From positions 1 through 41,184 of the IMG/VR virus record IMGVR_UViG_3300045988_018086: DNA of 41,184 nt, one strand, 5' to 3'. Shown in pieces: positions 5,276 through 33,876 of this stretch (position 1 is the first letter of the stretch; every line of letters begins with the position of its first letter). Origin of the DNA: a virus (lineage: Duplodnaviria > Heunggongvirae > Uroviricota > Caudoviricetes). Under the pieces are notes generated by a model. The model was not told the DNA's origin and did not search any database. It worked only from the letters and a program-made list of their open reading frames with translations. Position numbers and translations under genes: made by a program.

Positions 5276-6442
5276 TTATGCGTATGTGATACGCTGAATA
5301 ACAATAGACGACTGGTACTGGTTGCCAGTAGCCTGGCCTTCAATAGACTGAGTGATTGACTCAGGTCCTCCAATCTCAGGTGTAACCGCCGTAAGTTCTG
5401 CACGTTTCAAACTGAAAGACATAGCCCCGTTTACCCCAGCCAGAATAGAGTTAATCTCCACCTGCTGCTCGTTGATAAACTTCTGAATCATCGCCATGTC
5501 GTACAGCTTACCGGAGATGGAGAAGGTGTTAGCTGCTCGGCTACGCTCCACAAACGCTACGTTAGTGTTGCCGAGTTCGAACTGTGCGGACGCGCTGTTG
5601 TCGTTGGTGATGGTCAGGCTGTCGCAACGCAACGGCGTAGAACCGTCGAACACAGAAACATCGACCGAGGAGAATGGCTCGTCACCAAACGTAACAGAGG
5701 AGAAATCAGAACCAGACGGCTGCGTGGTGAGAATCTCCTGACTGCGACCGATGAACGGGAAGCTGCCAGTTACCATAGCGTTAACAGCCTGTTCGATGGT
5801 AAAACCAGAAACTTCCACGCCTTTGGTTAGTGTGTACGCGTCAGTCCCGCCGCACTGGCCTTTGTACCAGGTGAGAATAGAGAACGTCTTGCACTGGCTT
5901 CCCGTTTCCAGTTTATCCCCTGTCTTAGCGGCGGTAGTTACTGTCTCTGTGGTCAGGGTATGCTGGATACCCGCCCCGGTCACTACCAGCGCCTCTACTG
6001 CAGTTACGATAAACGGTTTTGCGTTGTCACCGGTTAAGTCGGTAAACGCAATCAGGTCGCCCACTTCAACGCCGTCAGAAATAAAGCTACCTTCGGCACG
6101 GGTAAAGGTCTTGCCTGCAGGCGCGACGGTAATTGATAGCCCGGTCAGAGAACTACCGGATTGCCATGTAGAGCCTAAAGCTCCCGCCAGCCAGTCGTCC
6201 TGGCTTTTCGAGCTAAGCTCAATAGCGTATTCTCCGCTAACCTGCTTGTTACCGGTGCGGATTGACGTAGTTTCACGGCTGCCGTCCAGTTCGTTGGAGG
6301 TCAGCGTGTCGCGGGTAATGGCAGGAACGCCACCTGTGTTACGCAATGGCGACCAGACCGGGTTAGTCGGTGTTACGCCAGGGGTAGTTTCTGCCACATA
6401 GAATTGCGCAGTATTCGCGCCCTTAAAAGGAGTTGTAGCCAT
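5276..6442 (-). CDS. Major tail protein (likely start ATG at 6442; track start 6448 is GTG)
   Basis: Position upstream of G/GT chaperones; AGAGG RBS before ATG; followed by terminator. Confidence 0.55.
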   Translation of the reverse strand: MATTPFKGANTAQFYVAETTPGVTPTNPVWSPLRNTGGVPAITRDTLTSNELDGSRETTSIRTGNKQVSGEYAIELSSKSQDDWLAGALGSTWQSGSSLTGLSITVAPAGKTFTRAEGSFISDGVEVGDLIAFTDLTGDNAKPFIVTAVEALVVTGAGIQHTLTTETVTTAAKTGDKLETGSQCKTFSILTWYKGQCGGTDAYTLTKGVEVSGFTIEQAVNAMVTGSFPFIGRSQEILTTQPSGSDFSSVTFGDEPFSSVDVSVFDGSTPLRCDSLTITNDNSASAQFELGNTNVAFVERSRAANTFSISGKLYDMAMIQKFINEQQVEINSILAGVNGAMSFSLKRAELTAVTPEIGGPESITQSIEGQATGNQYQSSIVIQRITYA

Positions 6443-28485: not shown

Positions 28486-28514
28486 TTGACACCTGAATAG
28501 TTAGCTATTATAGT
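28486..28514 (+). promoter_or_regulatory. Promoter TTGACA-N17-TATAGT with AATAG-TTAG-CTATT operator in the spacer
   Basis: Near-identical to 26388..26416. Confidence 0.6.
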
Positions 28515-29253: not shown

Positions 29254-31434
29254 ATGAGTTACCTGTTCTTAGACTTTGAAACATTCTCCGAAGCCGATTT
29301 GAAGAAAGTCGGCTCCTACGCTTACGCCGAACATCCAACCACCGAAGTTCTAATCTGCACATATGCTTTTGACGACGAGCCTGTGCAGGTATGGGATTGC
29401 ACCAACGGCAGCGACATGCCGGGCGATTTGCACCGCGCGTTACGCCGTCTGGTGAAACCAAACAGCCGTATTAAGATGGTGTGGCACAACGGCTCAATGT
29501 TCGACAGGCCCATCATGAAGCACTGCTGGGGTTTTGATATTCCCGTAAGCAACACCATTGATACGATGATTTGGGCGTTTCGTCACGCGCTGCCGGGTTC
29601 ACTCGACGCATTGTGCGAAGTGCTTGGCGTGTCTGCAGACAACGCGAAAGACAAACGAGGCAAAGCGCTTATTCAGCGTTTCTCTAAACCGACGCCGAAG
29701 AACTACAAAATTCGCCGCTACACTGCTGAAACGCACCCGGATGAGTGGGCGCTGTTCATCAAGTACGCCGTTAGCGACATCACCGCGATGCGTGAAGTGT
29801 TCCATAAGTTGCCGCGTTGGGGTAACTCCGAGTTCGAAGACCGTGTACTGGAACTGGACCAGTTAATTAACGACCGCGGGTTTAAGGTCGACGTTGCGCT
29901 GGCGGAAGCCGCAATTGAAGCTGTGGAGAAACACAAGGCACAGTTACAGGAAGAAGCCCAACGTAAATACGGCGGCTCGCTTACAGGTAAGGACTTCCTG
30001 CCGATTCTGCGTGAACTGGCGCCTGCGCATCGCATCCACAACGCGCAGAAGTCTACGCTTAACGACCTGCTTGCTGACGATGATTTACCGGACGACGCCC
30101 GCACGATTATAGAAATGCGCCTCGGGGCGGCATCCACTGCGTCAACGAAATATAACCCGCTGCTGTTAGGCCGCTCGTCTGACGACCGCCGTCGCGGTTG
30201 CATCCAGTATGGTGGGGCTAAACGTACGTTACGATTTGCGGGTAAAGGCTTCCAGCCGCAGAACCTGGCGCGTGGGTACTATCACGATGATGAACTGGAT
30301 AAAGGTATTTCAGCATTACTTAAGGGCCGAGCACATCGCCGTTTTGATGTAGCCAAGCTAACGGCATCTACGGTTCGCAGCTGCATTATCCCGGAAGCCG
30401 GGTATAAGTTTGTCGTCGCCGACTACTCGAACGTTGAAGGCCGCGGTTTGGCGTGGCTGGCTGGCGAAGAAACCGCGCTTGATACGTTCCGTGCCGGGCT
30501 GGATATTTACTGCGTAACCGCAGGCAAGATGTTCGGCATGGAGCCGGATTACATTAAGAAAGAACGTAAAGACTTACGCCAGATTGGTAAGGCATGCGAA
30601 CTTGGACTTGGCTACGCGGGTGGTGTCGGCGCATTCGTACAGTTCGCCAAGAACCTCGGCCTTGACCTTGTTGATATGGCAAAAACAATGGACGGGACTT
30701 TCCCCGACCACATCTGGGCTGCTACCGCACGTGGATATGAGTGGGCGCGTATTCAGGAAGCCAAGCGACCACCACGTCCAGGTGAAAATGATGACCGACC
30801 ATCTTATATTCTTGATAAGAAAGTGTGGCGTACCTGCGACGCTATCAAGCGTATGTGGCGTGAGTCACACCCGGAAACAGTAGCTTTCTGGCGGGATATT
30901 GAAGACGCAGCTATGGCAGCTATCCGCAATCCGGGCAAAGAGTTCACCGCAGGGCCGCGGGGAGTTAAGTTTTCGCGCAACGTAGAAACGGACAACAACG
31001 GCAACAAAGTCGCCGGTTGGTGGTTGCGTATGACGTTGCCGTCTGGTCGAGTTATGTCATACCCTGGCGTCGGGTTAAGCGTGTCGAAAGAGACAGACGA
31101 AGACGGGAAGGTGTCTACCAACGTGCGCATCAAGTACCAGGGCGAAAACCAGTTAACCCGTCAGTGGGGCTTCCAGTACACCTACTCTGGTAAACTGGTG
31201 GAAAACTGCACTCAGGCGCTGTGCCGTGATTTGTTGGCTAATGCACTGCTGAACGTCGAAGCAAACGGCTACCCGATTGTGCTTCATGTTCACGATGAGA
31301 TTATCTGCGAGACACCAGATTTACCAGAATACAATGTCGCAGAACTGGAACGATTGATGTGCGAATTACCAGAGTGGGCCGAGGGGTTCCCTCTTGTAGC
31401 AGAAGGCGCGGAGATGAAGCGTTATGCCAAGTAA
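29254..31434 (+). CDS. DNA polymerase, family A, with N-terminal 3'-5' exonuclease domain
   Basis: Exo I DFET, Pol motif A DYSNVEGR, motif B RQIGKACELGLGYAGG, motif C HVHDE. Confidence 0.85.
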   Translation: MSYLFLDFETFSEADLKKVGSYAYAEHPTTEVLICTYAFDDEPVQVWDCTNGSDMPGDLHRALRRLVKPNSRIKMVWHNGSMFDRPIMKHCWGFDIPVSNTIDTMIWAFRHALPGSLDALCEVLGVSADNAKDKRGKALIQRFSKPTPKNYKIRRYTAETHPDEWALFIKYAVSDITAMREVFHKLPRWGNSEFEDRVLELDQLINDRGFKVDVALAEAAIEAVEKHKAQLQEEAQRKYGGSLTGKDFLPILRELAPAHRIHNAQKSTLNDLLADDDLPDDARTIIEMRLGAASTASTKYNPLLLGRSSDDRRRGCIQYGGAKRTLRFAGKGFQPQNLARGYYHDDELDKGISALLKGRAHRRFDVAKLTASTVRSCIIPEAGYKFVVADYSNVEGRGLAWLAGEETALDTFRAGLDIYCVTAGKMFGMEPDYIKKERKDLRQIGKACELGLGYAGGVGAFVQFAKNLGLDLVDMAKTMDGTFPDHIWAATARGYEWARIQEAKRPPRPGENDDRPSYILDKKVWRTCDAIKRMWRESHPETVAFWRDIEDAAMAAIRNPGKEFTAGPRGVKFSRNVETDNNGNKVAGWWLRMTLPSGRVMSYPGVGLSVSKETDEDGKVSTNVRIKYQGENQLTRQWGFQYTYSGKLVENCTQALCRDLLANALLNVEANGYPIVLHVHDEIICETPDLPEYNVAELERLMCELPEWAEGFPLVAEGAEMKRYAK

Positions 31435-31555
31435 ACTGATTATCGCGGTACTGGCGGGATTTGCTGCCGGTGTCTACTGTCACGAGGGTCAATACGGCAT
31501 GATGGTTGCCATATTGGGCATGTTCATCGCAATTTATCTGTGGGTGCTGGAATGA
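31424..31555 (+). CDS. Micro-ORF 1: 43-aa single-pass membrane peptide
   Basis: Hydrophobic sequence; ATG overlaps end of polymerase gene; stop overlaps next ATG (ATGA). Confidence 0.35.
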   Translation: MPSKLIIAVLAGFAAGVYCHEGQYGMMVAILGMFIAIYLWVLE

Positions 31556-31641
31556 AAATCTACTGGTTTTATGAAGAAGACTGTCGAATCTGTCCGCGCT
31601 GCGGTATTGAACATACGAAACGGGAGGGGTGCGTACTATGA
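31552..31641 (+). CDS. Micro-ORF 2: 29-aa zinc-ribbon-like peptide (C-x2-C-x2-C-x9-C)
   Basis: ATGA coupling at both ends; four Cys. Confidence 0.3.
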   Translation: MKIYWFYEEDCRICPRCGIEHTKREGCVL

Positions 31642-31790
31642 CAATGTTTGTATTTCGGACGATAGTAACCATGCTCGCACTGTTACTCGGGGCGGGAATA
31701 GCCGCGATGTTCTGTTACGGCCTGTTCTTTAAGTTTGCCGGTGTTGCCGTTCTAGGCGGGGCGTTTATAACTTGGGTTCTGCACTCATGA
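31638..31790 (+). CDS. Micro-ORF 3: 50-aa membrane protein
   Basis: Two hydrophobic stretches; ATGA coupling to VRR-NUC gene. Confidence 0.35.
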   Translation: MTMFVFRTIVTMLALLLGAGIAAMFCYGLFFKFAGVAVLGGAFITWVLHS

Positions 31791-32071
31791 CCCCGGAAGG
31801 CAAAATACAGAAATACGCAAAAGAGCGATTCGAGGCCATTGGTGGCCTCGTTCGTAAACTTTCCTACGAGGGGCGTTCCGGCGCTCCCGACCTGCTGGTA
31901 ATTCTCCCAGACGGCATAGTCTGGTTTGTCGAGGTGAAGAAAGACGAAAACACGAAGCCAGACCCACACCAGCTACGTGAGCATGAGCGTATGCGCAAAC
32001 GCGGCGCGAATGTTTTTGTCGTTGGTTCGTTTAAACAGGTTGACGACCTAATAGCGAGCTATTATAGTTAA
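31787..32071 (+). CDS. VRR-NUC domain nuclease (PD-(D/E)XK fold)
   Basis: PDLLVILPDG..FVEVK motif. Confidence 0.6.
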   Translation: MTPEGKIQKYAKERFEAIGGLVRKLSYEGRSGAPDLLVILPDGIVWFVEVKKDENTKPDPHQLREHERMRKRGANVFVVGSFKQVDDLIASYYS

Positions 32072-32101
32072 TCACACACCAACAATATAAGGAATTGAGA
32101 A

Positions 32102-32293
32102 ATGAAACACGAATATGACCGCAAGCCAGCACGTGACATCGTACCTGGCGATATGATTTTCAACGTTAAGACCCGCCACCCTGTTGCCGTTGATACGGTG
32201 TACGTCGAGTCGAACGGTAAACTGGTTATCGAAGATGTAACTGGTAACGTTACGGCGTTCGGGCGTAAAGAGTTAGTTCTGGTGCTGAAATGA
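32102..32293 (+). CDS. Hypothetical protein
   Basis: ORF with ATGA overlap to helicase gene. Confidence 0.4.
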   Translation: MKHEYDRKPARDIVPGDMIFNVKTRHPVAVDTVYVESNGKLVIEDVTGNVTAFGRKELVLVLK

Positions 32294-33714
32294 GTAAGTT
32301 TCAAAGGCGCGAGTACCAGAAGCTCATGACTTCGTTCATGTTGCGGCACCATCGCTGCAACATATGGGCAAGCATGGGCGCCGGGAAGACGGGCAGTGTC
32401 CTGTGGGCTTTAAACCGACTGTTCCGCAATGGGCAACTTAATGACGACGACCGCGTGTTAATCCTCGCCCCGTTGCGTGTTGCGTCTGGCACGTGGCCCG
32501 CAGAGCAAGAGAAATGGAACTTTCCCTGTCTGAGTGTCGTTGACGCGACCGGTTCAGAGAAGCGCCGCATCGCGGCGCTGGAATCAGACGCTAACGTGGT
32601 GTGTACAAACTACGAAGTTATCGAATGGCTGATTGACTACTACGGCAAAGACGACTGGCCTTTTACCGTTATCGTCGCCGACGAAAGCACGAAGCTGAAA
32701 TCATTCCGCAGCCGTTCAGGTGGAAGCAAGAGGGCGAAGGCGCTAAGTAAAGTTGCGTTCGGTAAGGTTAAGCGTTTCATTAACCTGACTGGTACGCCGT
32801 CGCCGAACGGCCTCAAGGACTTATGGGGCCAGAACTGGTTTATCGACGCGGGTGAGCGCCTCGGTTCTTCATACACAGCATTCACCGACCGCTGGTTTAA
32901 CTCGGTACAGAAAGGCAAATCAGCGATGGCGCGTGAGTATCATGCGCGCCCTGGTGCGGATAATGAAATCCATCAGAAGATGAAGGACATTAGTCTCACG
33001 ATTGACGCCGCTGAGTGGTTCGGTTGCGAAGCGCCAATTATCGTCCCTGTTGAAATTGACCTGCCGAAGAAAGCACGTCAGGCGTACATAGATATGGAGG
33101 AAAAGTTATTCGCAGAACTGGAGAGCGGAGAAGTTGAAGCCGCTAACGCGGCGGCAAAGACGTCAAAGTGCTTGCAAATTGCTTCCGGTGCCGTGTATGT
33201 GACGGGTGACGACGGAGAAGCAACCAAAGACTGGGAGAAAGTGCACGACACGAAACTGGATGCGCTGGAGTCAATTGTTGATGAGTTACAGGGCGCGCCG
33301 TTACTGGTGGCCTATCAGTTCAAGCACGAACTGGAGCGCATCCTTAAGCGATTCCCGCAGGCGCAGGCGTTCGCCAAAGGTGCCAAGGGTAATAAGCAGA
33401 TGGAAGCGTGGAACCGTGGCGAAATCGAAATCCTATGCGTGCACCCCGCGTCAGCCGGCCATGGCTTGAATTTACAGGACGGCGGACATCATCTGGCGTT
33501 TATTTCGCAAGGCTGGAACCTTGAGCACTATTTGCAGGTTGTCGAGCGTATAGGCCCGGTGCGCCAGAAGCAGGCGGGCCACGAGCGACCAGTGTTCATC
33601 TATCACATCGTTGCTAAAGACACGCTGGACGAGGTTGTTGCCTCGCGTACTGACGAGAAGAAATCGGTCCAGGAAGAGTTGCTTAATTACATGAAGAGAC
33701 GAGGTAAGAAATGA
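32290..33714 (+). CDS. Superfamily 2 helicase (SNF2/DEAD-like)
   Basis: Motif I GAGKTG, motif II DESTKLK, motif III LTGTPSPNG, C-terminal helicase domain. Confidence 0.75.
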   Translation: MSKFQRREYQKLMTSFMLRHHRCNIWASMGAGKTGSVLWALNRLFRNGQLNDDDRVLILAPLRVASGTWPAEQEKWNFPCLSVVDATGSEKRRIAALESDANVVCTNYEVIEWLIDYYGKDDWPFTVIVADESTKLKSFRSRSGGSKRAKALSKVAFGKVKRFINLTGTPSPNGLKDLWGQNWFIDAGERLGSSYTAFTDRWFNSVQKGKSAMAREYHARPGADNEIHQKMKDISLTIDAAEWFGCEAPIIVPVEIDLPKKARQAYIDMEEKLFAELESGEVEAANAAAKTSKCLQIASGAVYVTGDDGEATKDWEKVHDTKLDALESIVDELQGAPLLVAYQFKHELERILKRFPQAQAFAKGAKGNKQMEAWNRGEIEILCVHPASAGHGLNLQDGGHHLAFISQGWNLEHYLQVVERIGPVRQKQAGHERPVFIYHIVAKDTLDEVVASRTDEKKSVQEELLNYMKRRGKK

Positions 33715-33848: not shown

Positions 33849-33853
33849 AGAAA

Positions 33854-33871
33854 AGGCCCCGTTTGGGGCCT
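33854..33871. terminator. Bidirectional terminator hairpin (AGGCCCC-GTTT-GGGGCCT), near-identical to 5253..5270
   Basis: Same stem as the 5253 terminator; between convergent helicase-region and tailspike genes. Confidence 0.6.
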
Positions 33872-33876
33872 TAGTT

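Follow-up and report, generated by a model that had tools for sequence, protein, structure and literature searches.

What do three very short open reading frames (ORFs) do between a DNA polymerase gene and a nuclease gene of a phage, and why do they lie there? The question arises in IMG/VR record IMGVR_UViG_3300045988_018086, of which positions 1 to 41,184 (41,184 nucleotides, nt; hereafter the window) were analyzed. A first description, made from the letters of the window without database searches and called here the sequence-only reading, reported three consecutive ORFs of 43, 29 and 50 amino acids (aa) between the genes for DNA polymerase and a VRR-NUC nuclease, and their coordinates are borne out. 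The ORFs are designated o1, o2 and o3. As described, the overlaps o1/o2 (31552) and o2/o3 (31638) read ATGA, and so does the overlap o3/VRR-NUC (31787); an ORF track with a 60-aa cut-off does miss all three. The gene order is family A DNA polymerase, o1, o2, o3, VRR-NUC, a 63-aa gene and an SNF2-type helicase. The slot and its two flanking genes are laid out as follows:

29254..31434, plus strand: gene for a family A DNA polymerase; the annotation in relatives is DNA polymerase, and its final 11 nt are shared with the start of o1
31424..31555, plus strand (ATG to TGA): o1, 43 aa, PHROG 10404, hydrophobic, with two hydrophobic segments and a YCHEGQY loop; accessory
31552..31641, plus strand (ATG to TGA): o2, 29 aa, PHROG 38225, Cys-rich and soluble, with a CPRCG knuckle; core of the slot
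31638..31790, plus strand (ATG to TGA): o3, 50 aa, PHROG 14925, hydrophobic throughout, with GxG and GG motifs; accessory
31787..32071, plus strand, ATG start: VRR-NUC nuclease gene, named Holliday junction resolvase or endonuclease in relatives

By nucleotide identity, the genome that carries o1, o2 and o3 is that of a Kagunavirus (Guernseyvirinae) phage: across 31000-32300, identity is 90-96% with K1G-like E. coli siphophages of this genus and 80-90% with several hundred Salmonella Jersey-like phages, with 437 matching records overall. The answer that we favour, by a modest lean, is a joint one, in which genuine small genes occupy a modular slot and would be translationally coupled, o2 would be a metal-stabilised adaptor, and o1 and o3 would be accessory membrane peptides.

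Coding status of o1, o2 and o3

Homologous segments were extracted from a sample of 79 loci around VRR-NUC homologues in IMG/VR and from three GenBank relatives. The ratio of nonsynonymous to synonymous substitution rates (dN/dS) was compared over the 23 loci carrying every part, i.e., 22 related loci and the window; locus counts of 52 given below also include the window. The ratio is 0.20 for o1, 0.055 for o2 and 0.17 for o3, next to control values of 0.11 for the polymerase C-terminus, 0.13 for VRR-NUC and 0.07 for the 63-aa gene, and the remaining two forward frames of the three ORFs give 0.84-2.25. One antisense frame has a low dN/dS too, in the control genes as well as in the ORFs; this is uninformative, because the wobble position is shared. 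Nucleotide diversity is highest at codon position 3 in o1, o2 and o3 alike, and internal length variants keep to whole codons: o3 occurs with a deletion of 5 aa, and o1 with a duplication of 3 aa or a deletion of 14 aa. In protein searches the lengths are almost always exactly 43, 29 and 50 aa, and all matches of o1 and o3 are at least ~78% identical, bar a few truncated or frameshifted variants. Checked in related phages for conservation and dN/dS, as the sequence-only reading had proposed, the three frames prove to be conserved and under purifying selection; judged by these patterns, o1, o2 and o3 are genuine conserved protein-coding small genes.

Aberrant forms were also encountered. They make up a rare, separate class of truncated or C-terminally divergent proteins (P0178, P0180 and P0184, the latter two being forms of o3) and, in public assemblies, frameshifted fusions of 68-79 aa (P0002-P0005, P0010, P0081, P0084, P0164, P0177), in which either o1 shifts into the o2 frame at various points or o2 runs into o3 and loses Cys27. 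Since the fusions and the truncated o3 forms are mostly found in one or two contigs each, they are regarded as errors or rare mutants. A minus-strand ORF of 123 aa at 31301-31672 was considered as a gene and rejected, as internal stops interrupt it in 35 of 45 relatives.

The three genes are already catalogued. Phages fKuEco01 (KE1_038/037/036) and Bas70 (Bas70_0041/0040/0039) list all of them as hypothetical proteins, whose positions counted from the polymerase gene, order and 4-nt overlaps are those of the window, and the annotation of phage G AB-2017 includes o1 and o3. Each gene also matches a PHROG family of unknown function: o1 matches PHROG 10404 over residues 1-43 of 43 (E 4.5e-32), o2 residues 1-28 align with profile positions 5-32 of 36 in PHROG 38225 (E 2.5e-22), and o3 matches PHROG 14925 over residues 1-50 of 50 (E 9.9e-33). 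No relatives were found outside Guernseyvirinae-like phages among 5.8 billion clustered proteins or in a profile search of 1.84 billion representatives, and the longest contigs with o1 or o3 matches reach only phage-genome size, up to ~46 kb. ATGA overlaps and small gene size are not exceptional for these phages either: in Bas70, 20 of the 74 same-strand pairs of neighbouring genes share a 4-nt overlap, and 22 of its 83 genes are shorter than 60 aa. The first observation was thus accurate, and because related genomes already annotate the genes, the finding is correct but ordinary; o1, o2 and o3 are an ordinary part of Guernseyvirinae genomes. The comparison of genomes adds two points: a 29-aa core gene, o2, frequently goes without annotation, and the junction of polymerase and VRR-NUC is a slot for cassettes. 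The o2 match falls where no feature is annotated in 14 of 40 sampled records (tblastn); o2 is a core gene in many Salmonella and E. coli phages that are therapeutic candidates and lacks annotation in many genomes; the practical value of recognising it is modest.

The polymerase/VRR-NUC slot and its start signals

The distribution of the three genes was assessed with tblastn against 50,697 phage records. The o2 gene is found in 445 of them, which is essentially every record matching the region, with o1 in 224 records and o3 in 121. This distribution marks the junction of polymerase and VRR-NUC as a variable slot for cassettes, with o2 as its constant core and with o1 and o3 as dispensable genes. 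The placement of the ORFs in the replication module, which the sequence-only reading had called unexplained, is explained in part by this slot. Eight slot architectures occur among the 52 loci:

o1-o2-o3, with no extra gene
o1-o2, with no extra gene
o2-o3, with no extra gene
o2 alone, with no extra gene
o1-o2 and a 25-aa hydrophobic peptide
o1-o2 and a 64-67-aa soluble protein, then o3
o1-o2 and a 64-67-aa soluble protein, without o3
o1-o2 and an HNH endonuclease

The 64-67-aa soluble protein (MSNKPFSKKLAALVDMPEWEF...CAGCTHKGVYYSEHD...) was observed in loci L010, L019, L026, L029, L032, L036, L044 and L049, at ~2152-2504 in locus coordinates, and its cassette begins at the same ATGA behind o2 whether o3 follows or not. 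Single hydrophobic peptides of 23-25 aa occupy the third position of the slot in L006, L007 and L056 (~2415-2501), starting with MTML in L007 and L056 (MTMLTTIMIIVAVFLGVAVLSKVTD in L007) and with MITI in L006. The MTML peptides are possibly internal-deletion derivatives of o3, because their first residues and a GVAVL motif are common to o3. HNH-type endonuclease genes lie within or just after the polymerase gene in L005 (1441-2148), L025 (1765-2280), L042 and L043 (both 1999-2505) and L054 (1351-1866); some GenBank records label the polymerase as intein-containing, and the region is a mobile-element hotspot.

Outgroup phages, in which the C-terminal 150 aa of the polymerase are 59-65% identical and VRR-NUC is 47-57% identical, have no o2, and their slot contains unrelated small genes, a ~130-aa protein or, in one type, nothing. 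The slot protein of outgroup loci L051 (2119-2508) and L054 (2110-2511), 129-133 aa long, carries HExxH-like motifs (HEAVHC, HECYH), which suggest a small metalloprotease-like domain. A small Cys-rich gene beside VRR-NUC was considered as a general rule for distant phages and rejected, since such a gene is present in some loci (L063, L069/L070, L080) and most have unrelated genes or nothing.

The loss of o1 has left a trace in the sequence of o2. In phages without o1, o2 begins MLSKLII-YYF..., that is, the seven opening codons of o1 run in frame into o2. Salmonella phages have this form, which shows in the DNA alignment as a 116-nt gap with a short repeat at its edges:

31436..31444, plus strand: left copy of the short repeat, CTGATTATC; the second copy is at the o2 start, 116 nt away

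The repeat TGATTATC is exact at both gap edges in L042 and L043 (o1 nt 14-21 and o2 nt 2-9), and the second copy in the window matches it at 6 of 8 bases. The simplest explanation of the o1-less form is a deletion between the TGATTATC repeats, by which o2 would keep a start that overlaps the polymerase stop.

The 4-nt overlaps persist wherever the genes concerned are direct neighbours. The 4-nt overlap of the o1 stop with the o2 start is present in all 45 loci compared (43 ATGA, 2 GTGA), that of o2 with o3 in all 20 loci where the two adjoin, and that of o3 with VRR-NUC in all 25 loci having o3. Two Shine-Dalgarno (SD)-like motifs of the window bear on how these genes may be started:

31410..31413, plus strand: SD-like GGAG of o1, within the polymerase 3' end, 10 nt before the o1 ATG
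31622..31629, plus strand: GGGAGGGG, SD-like motif for the downstream cassette, inside the o2 KREG codons and in invariant alignment columns

A GGAG/AGGAG-type motif lies 4-10 nt upstream of the o1 start in 44 of 45 loci (8-10 nt in 43), and GAGG/GGAGG lies 8-10 nt upstream of the o3 start in 25 of 25. The free-standing o2 start has no SD-like motif in any of 45 loci, and the VRR-NUC start has none in 25 of the 52, in which VRR-NUC comes after o3; loci with o3 likewise number 25. In loci lacking o3, a GAGG-type motif usually precedes VRR-NUC by 12-13 nt; it is the motif inside o2, whose GAGGGG core is shared by all 12 of the commonest variants of the 3' end.

Lacking SD motifs and starting within overlapping stops, o2 and VRR-NUC therefore probably rely on ribosomes that terminate there, and we infer that they are translated by ribosomes terminating on o1 and o3. 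Since o1 and o3 have SD-like motifs, coupling is not required for them. The translational coupling proposed for all three ORFs is thus plausible for o2, and for VRR-NUC as well, where an overlap goes with the lack of an SD-like motif, and is not needed for o1 and o3. Termination-reinitiation at ATGA overlaps, a general feature of phage and bacterial operons, offers a close likeness in its shared 4-nt overlaps and in the SD-less starts of o2 and VRR-NUC. The punctuation of the slot is fixed: o1 starts at an SD-preceded ATG overlapping the polymerase stop, and the o2 codons for KREG also form the SD of any following gene, which starts within the stop of o2. In the joint reading, ribosomes finishing o1 would restart on o2 and those finishing o3 on VRR-NUC, and each restart would tie a gene's output to that of its upstream neighbour. 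The slot is a tidy natural example of a cassette system, with the invariant 3' end of a micro-gene giving a ribosome-binding site and a start to interchangeable genes.

Proteins encoded in the slot and their candidate roles

The sequence-only reading took o1 and o3 for two hydrophobic single-pass membrane peptides. They are indeed very hydrophobic, with grand average of hydropathy (GRAVY) values of 1.35 and 1.67, respectively; the single pass is less well borne out, as o1 has two hydrophobic segments and o3 is hydrophobic over its full length. Hydropathy places the o1 segments at approximately residues 5-18 and 26-42, with a polar loop at residues 19-25 between them; this loop, YCHEGQY, is the best-conserved part of the protein, and on the hydropathy pattern a helical hairpin is likelier than a single pass. 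In o3 the hydrophobic stretch covers residues 2-48, in which only positions 7 (W, R or G) and 32 (K, Q, E or N) are variable or polar, and GxG and GG motifs are conserved. The AlphaFold2 model of o3 is a single unbroken helix of 48 residues, with no turn, at a predicted local distance difference test (pLDDT) score of 90; the model helix is twice the length of a membrane span, and a hairpin in the membrane is neither confirmed nor excluded by it. In the joint reading, o1 and o3 would insert into the host inner membrane, be dispensable and stand outside the replisome, and would act at the membrane, e.g., in superinfection exclusion or interference with the host envelope. They would thereby resemble T4 Imm and HK97 gp15, inner-membrane proteins that block superinfection and are short, hydrophobic, built of one or two segments, dispensable for growth and not encoded in the lysis cassette; o1 and o3, with 43 and 50 aa, are smaller, and they match neither family in Pfam or PHROGs.

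The o2 protein is of a different kind. Its GRAVY value is -0.43, and its five basic and five acidic residues leave it without net charge, so that strong binding to DNA by o2 alone is less likely. The cysteines are arranged as C11-x2-C14-x2-C17-x9-C27 with a single CPRCG knuckle. Across the 52 loci, Cys14 and Cys27 are invariant, Cys17 has one exception and Cys11 is replaced by Arg or Phe in six; a His at position 22 is mostly kept, and two rare public variants lack Cys27. The description of o2 as a four-cysteine zinc-ribbon-like peptide goes too far: a zinc ribbon has two CxxC(H) knuckles, each on a beta-hairpin, and four ligands that are all conserved, whereas o2 has one CPxCG knuckle and a replaceable Cys11, and a Pfam scan at E up to 1 returned no zinc-ribbon family, ZNF598 being among its sub-threshold noise. 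The cysteine pattern suggests one metal site, possibly with a Cys3His or an alternative ligand set.

The local likeness to zinc ribbon or rubredoxin-type proteins consists of a beta-strand followed by the CPRCG knuckle, as in the second knuckle of cytochrome c oxidase subunit 5B; o2 differs from them in having one knuckle, and its second half-site would be His-x4-Cys, not CxxC. A sequence search of the PDB with o2 gave a best E of 0.4, which is not significant, with the alignment (IYWFYEEDCRICPRCGIEH against FWLHKGEAQRCPRCGAHY) confined to the CPRCG knuckle. In one public record an o2 homologue bears the name of 3-hydroxyanthranilate dioxygenase, a label of the source's own; that enzyme carries a rubredoxin-like site. 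The joint reading takes o2 to be a soluble peptide that would hold a metal ion by Cys14, Cys17, Cys27 and either the His at position 22 or Cys11; its most likely role would be that of a small adaptor attaching to a partner from the replication/recombination module.

Several results weigh against the functional parts of this reading. AlphaFold2 gives o2 a pLDDT of only 59.8, with nothing but a two-residue hairpin around the knuckle. A word-indexed search, for which the o2 query was padded to 40 aa, returned only the same family and the frameshifted fusions, and the profile search of 1.84 billion representatives returned only the same family and four repetitive Cys-rich proteins. With no match outside this phage group, it is only gene position and conservation on which the adaptor role rests. 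The outgroup phages, being without o2, indicate that an o2-like protein is no general requirement of the module. A ribosome-binding site is embedded in the o2 3' end, and part of the conservation there is therefore at nucleotide level; to that extent it may reflect ribosome binding, not protein constraint. A Pfam scan of o1 and o3 at E up to 1 gave sub-threshold matches to EMC6, SPC12 and PufX only and no superinfection-immunity family. Exclusion at the membrane is suggested by the hydrophobicity and dispensability of the two peptides and by nothing more specific. The one RNA-seq study of a Kagunavirus that was found (PMC12645636) annotates only 57 ORFs and is silent on o1, o2 and o3, and a literature search found no functional, ribosome-profiling or proteomic data on them. 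If o2 were nevertheless a subunit of the polymerase or the resolvase, a micro-protein component would be added to the replication module of phages with a family A polymerase; if o1 and o3 were exclusion or anti-host factors, they would join the very small membrane effectors of phages.

Among the alternatives, the one that survives best, though we consider it unlikely, makes o2 a regulator: a small zinc finger binding RNA or DNA and controlling the genes downstream, much as Mu Com or P2 Ogr do. The protein is small and Cys-rich, has a CPxCG knuckle and is universally kept, and its gene lies directly upstream of the variable cassettes and, in relatives, of DNA methyltransferase genes, all of which would suit such a role. 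Its lack of net charge does not, nor do its 29 aa, which have room for one knuckle only; Pfam and PHROGs show no similarity of o2 to Com or Ogr families.

Improbable to a greater degree is a role in the timing of lysis, in which o1 and/or o3 would be holin-like, antiholin-like or membrane-depolarising peptides that tune lysis or switch off the host's energy metabolism. Small size, strong hydrophobicity and Gly/Ala-rich segments speak for it. Against it, neither protein matches a holin family in PHROGs or Pfam, their genes stand in the replication operon and not beside the endolysin gene, and characterised holins are not known to be as short as 43 or 50 aa. Moreover, relatives have a separate, complete lysis set at other sites, made up of two holins, an endolysin and Rz-like spanins. 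In Bas70 this set occupies 40179-41218 (holins and endolysin) and 5487-5982 (spanins), a long way from the polymerase region. Judged by this arrangement, o1 and o3 are not lysis genes.

The position of the genes invites the idea of a replisome tether, in which o1 and o3 would anchor the replication/recombination machinery to the inner membrane with o2 as a soluble link. We regard this as very doubtful. Two membrane peptides and a Cys-rich peptide, translationally linked and encoded between the polymerase and a resolvase-type nuclease, speak for it, and the YCHEGQY loop of o1, as its most conserved part, is as expected of an interaction surface. However, of the records with o2, about half lack o1 and about three quarters lack o3, with the polymerase and nuclease essentially unchanged, and the third position of the slot may hold unrelated genes or nothing; so frequent a loss of o1 and o3 argues against an essential tether. 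Membrane-associated organisers of replication are known in phage phi29, namely p1 and p16.7. The tether would resemble them, but no sequence similarity was found in PHROGs or Pfam.

A related proposal, to which we likewise give very little credence, would make o2 a co-translated, stoichiometric, metal-binding micro-subunit of the polymerase or VRR-NUC, and o1 and o3 interchangeable inner-membrane docking modules. If it were true, the polymerase/nuclease junction would be a plug-in site for micro-proteins that change both how and where the phage replicates.

Phage T7 genes 5.3 to 5.9 offer another likeness: they are short genes packed between family A polymerase and nuclease genes in a DNA-metabolism operon, and a homing-endonuclease-type gene adjoins them. 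They encode soluble host-interference factors and not parts of the replisome. Unlike the T7 proteins, two of the three considered here are membrane peptides, and no sequence similarity was found.

Least credible of all is the view that the ORFs are passive, i.e., relics of degraded mobile elements or spacers that keep ribosomes moving from polymerase to VRR-NUC with the peptide sequence irrelevant: the slot does host HNH homing endonucleases, o1 and o3 are frequently lost and the o2 3' end has a ribosome-binding role at nucleotide level, but the amino acids are under purifying selection within or near the range of the neighbouring enzymes (dN/dS 0.055-0.20), the lengths are near-constant, Cys14, Cys17 and Cys27 of o2, YCHEGQY of o1 and the glycine motifs of o3 are invariant or nearly so, and the deletion that removed o1 left o2 in frame.

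Transcription signals and neighbouring genes

The following sites and genes surround the slot in the window:

28486..28514, plus strand: promoter-like TTGACA-17-TATAGT (11/12), upstream of the SSB-like and polymerase genes; a consensus match only
32040-32068: promoter-like TTGACG-17-TATAGT (10/12), inside the last VRR-NUC codons and just upstream of the 63-aa gene
32102-32293: 63-aa gene
32290-33714: SNF2-type helicase gene
33853..33872, plus strand: beyond the helicase gene, a terminator-like hairpin of 8 pairs (6 G-C) with a T run behind it

From its sequence and place, the site at 28486..28514 is the likely start of the transcript carrying the micro-ORFs, and the hairpin at 33853..33872 is the likely end of the operon. 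The region of the micro-ORFs contains weaker matches only, a promoter-like site (9/12) at 31638-31666 and a 5-pair terminator-like stem at 31992; no promoter- or terminator-like site of comparable strength lies between the site at 28486..28514 and the micro-ORFs, or between these and the replication/recombination genes on either side. The genes o1, o2 and o3 therefore appear to be internal to one operon. An Rfam scan of 31000-32400 returned only chance-level matches. The site at 32040-32068 might, as an internal promoter, drive the 63-aa gene together with the helicase gene.

The product of the VRR-NUC gene matches PHROG 93 and 5702, and its match to Pfam VRR_NUC (E 7.5e-4) lies under the Pfam cut-off. 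Further downstream, the 63-aa gene and the helicase gene of the window meet in an ATGA overlap with nothing between them; phage G AB-2017 is like the window in having no methyltransferase gene at this junction, and in fKuEco01, Bas70 and K1G a DNA cytosine methyltransferase gene sits between the two.

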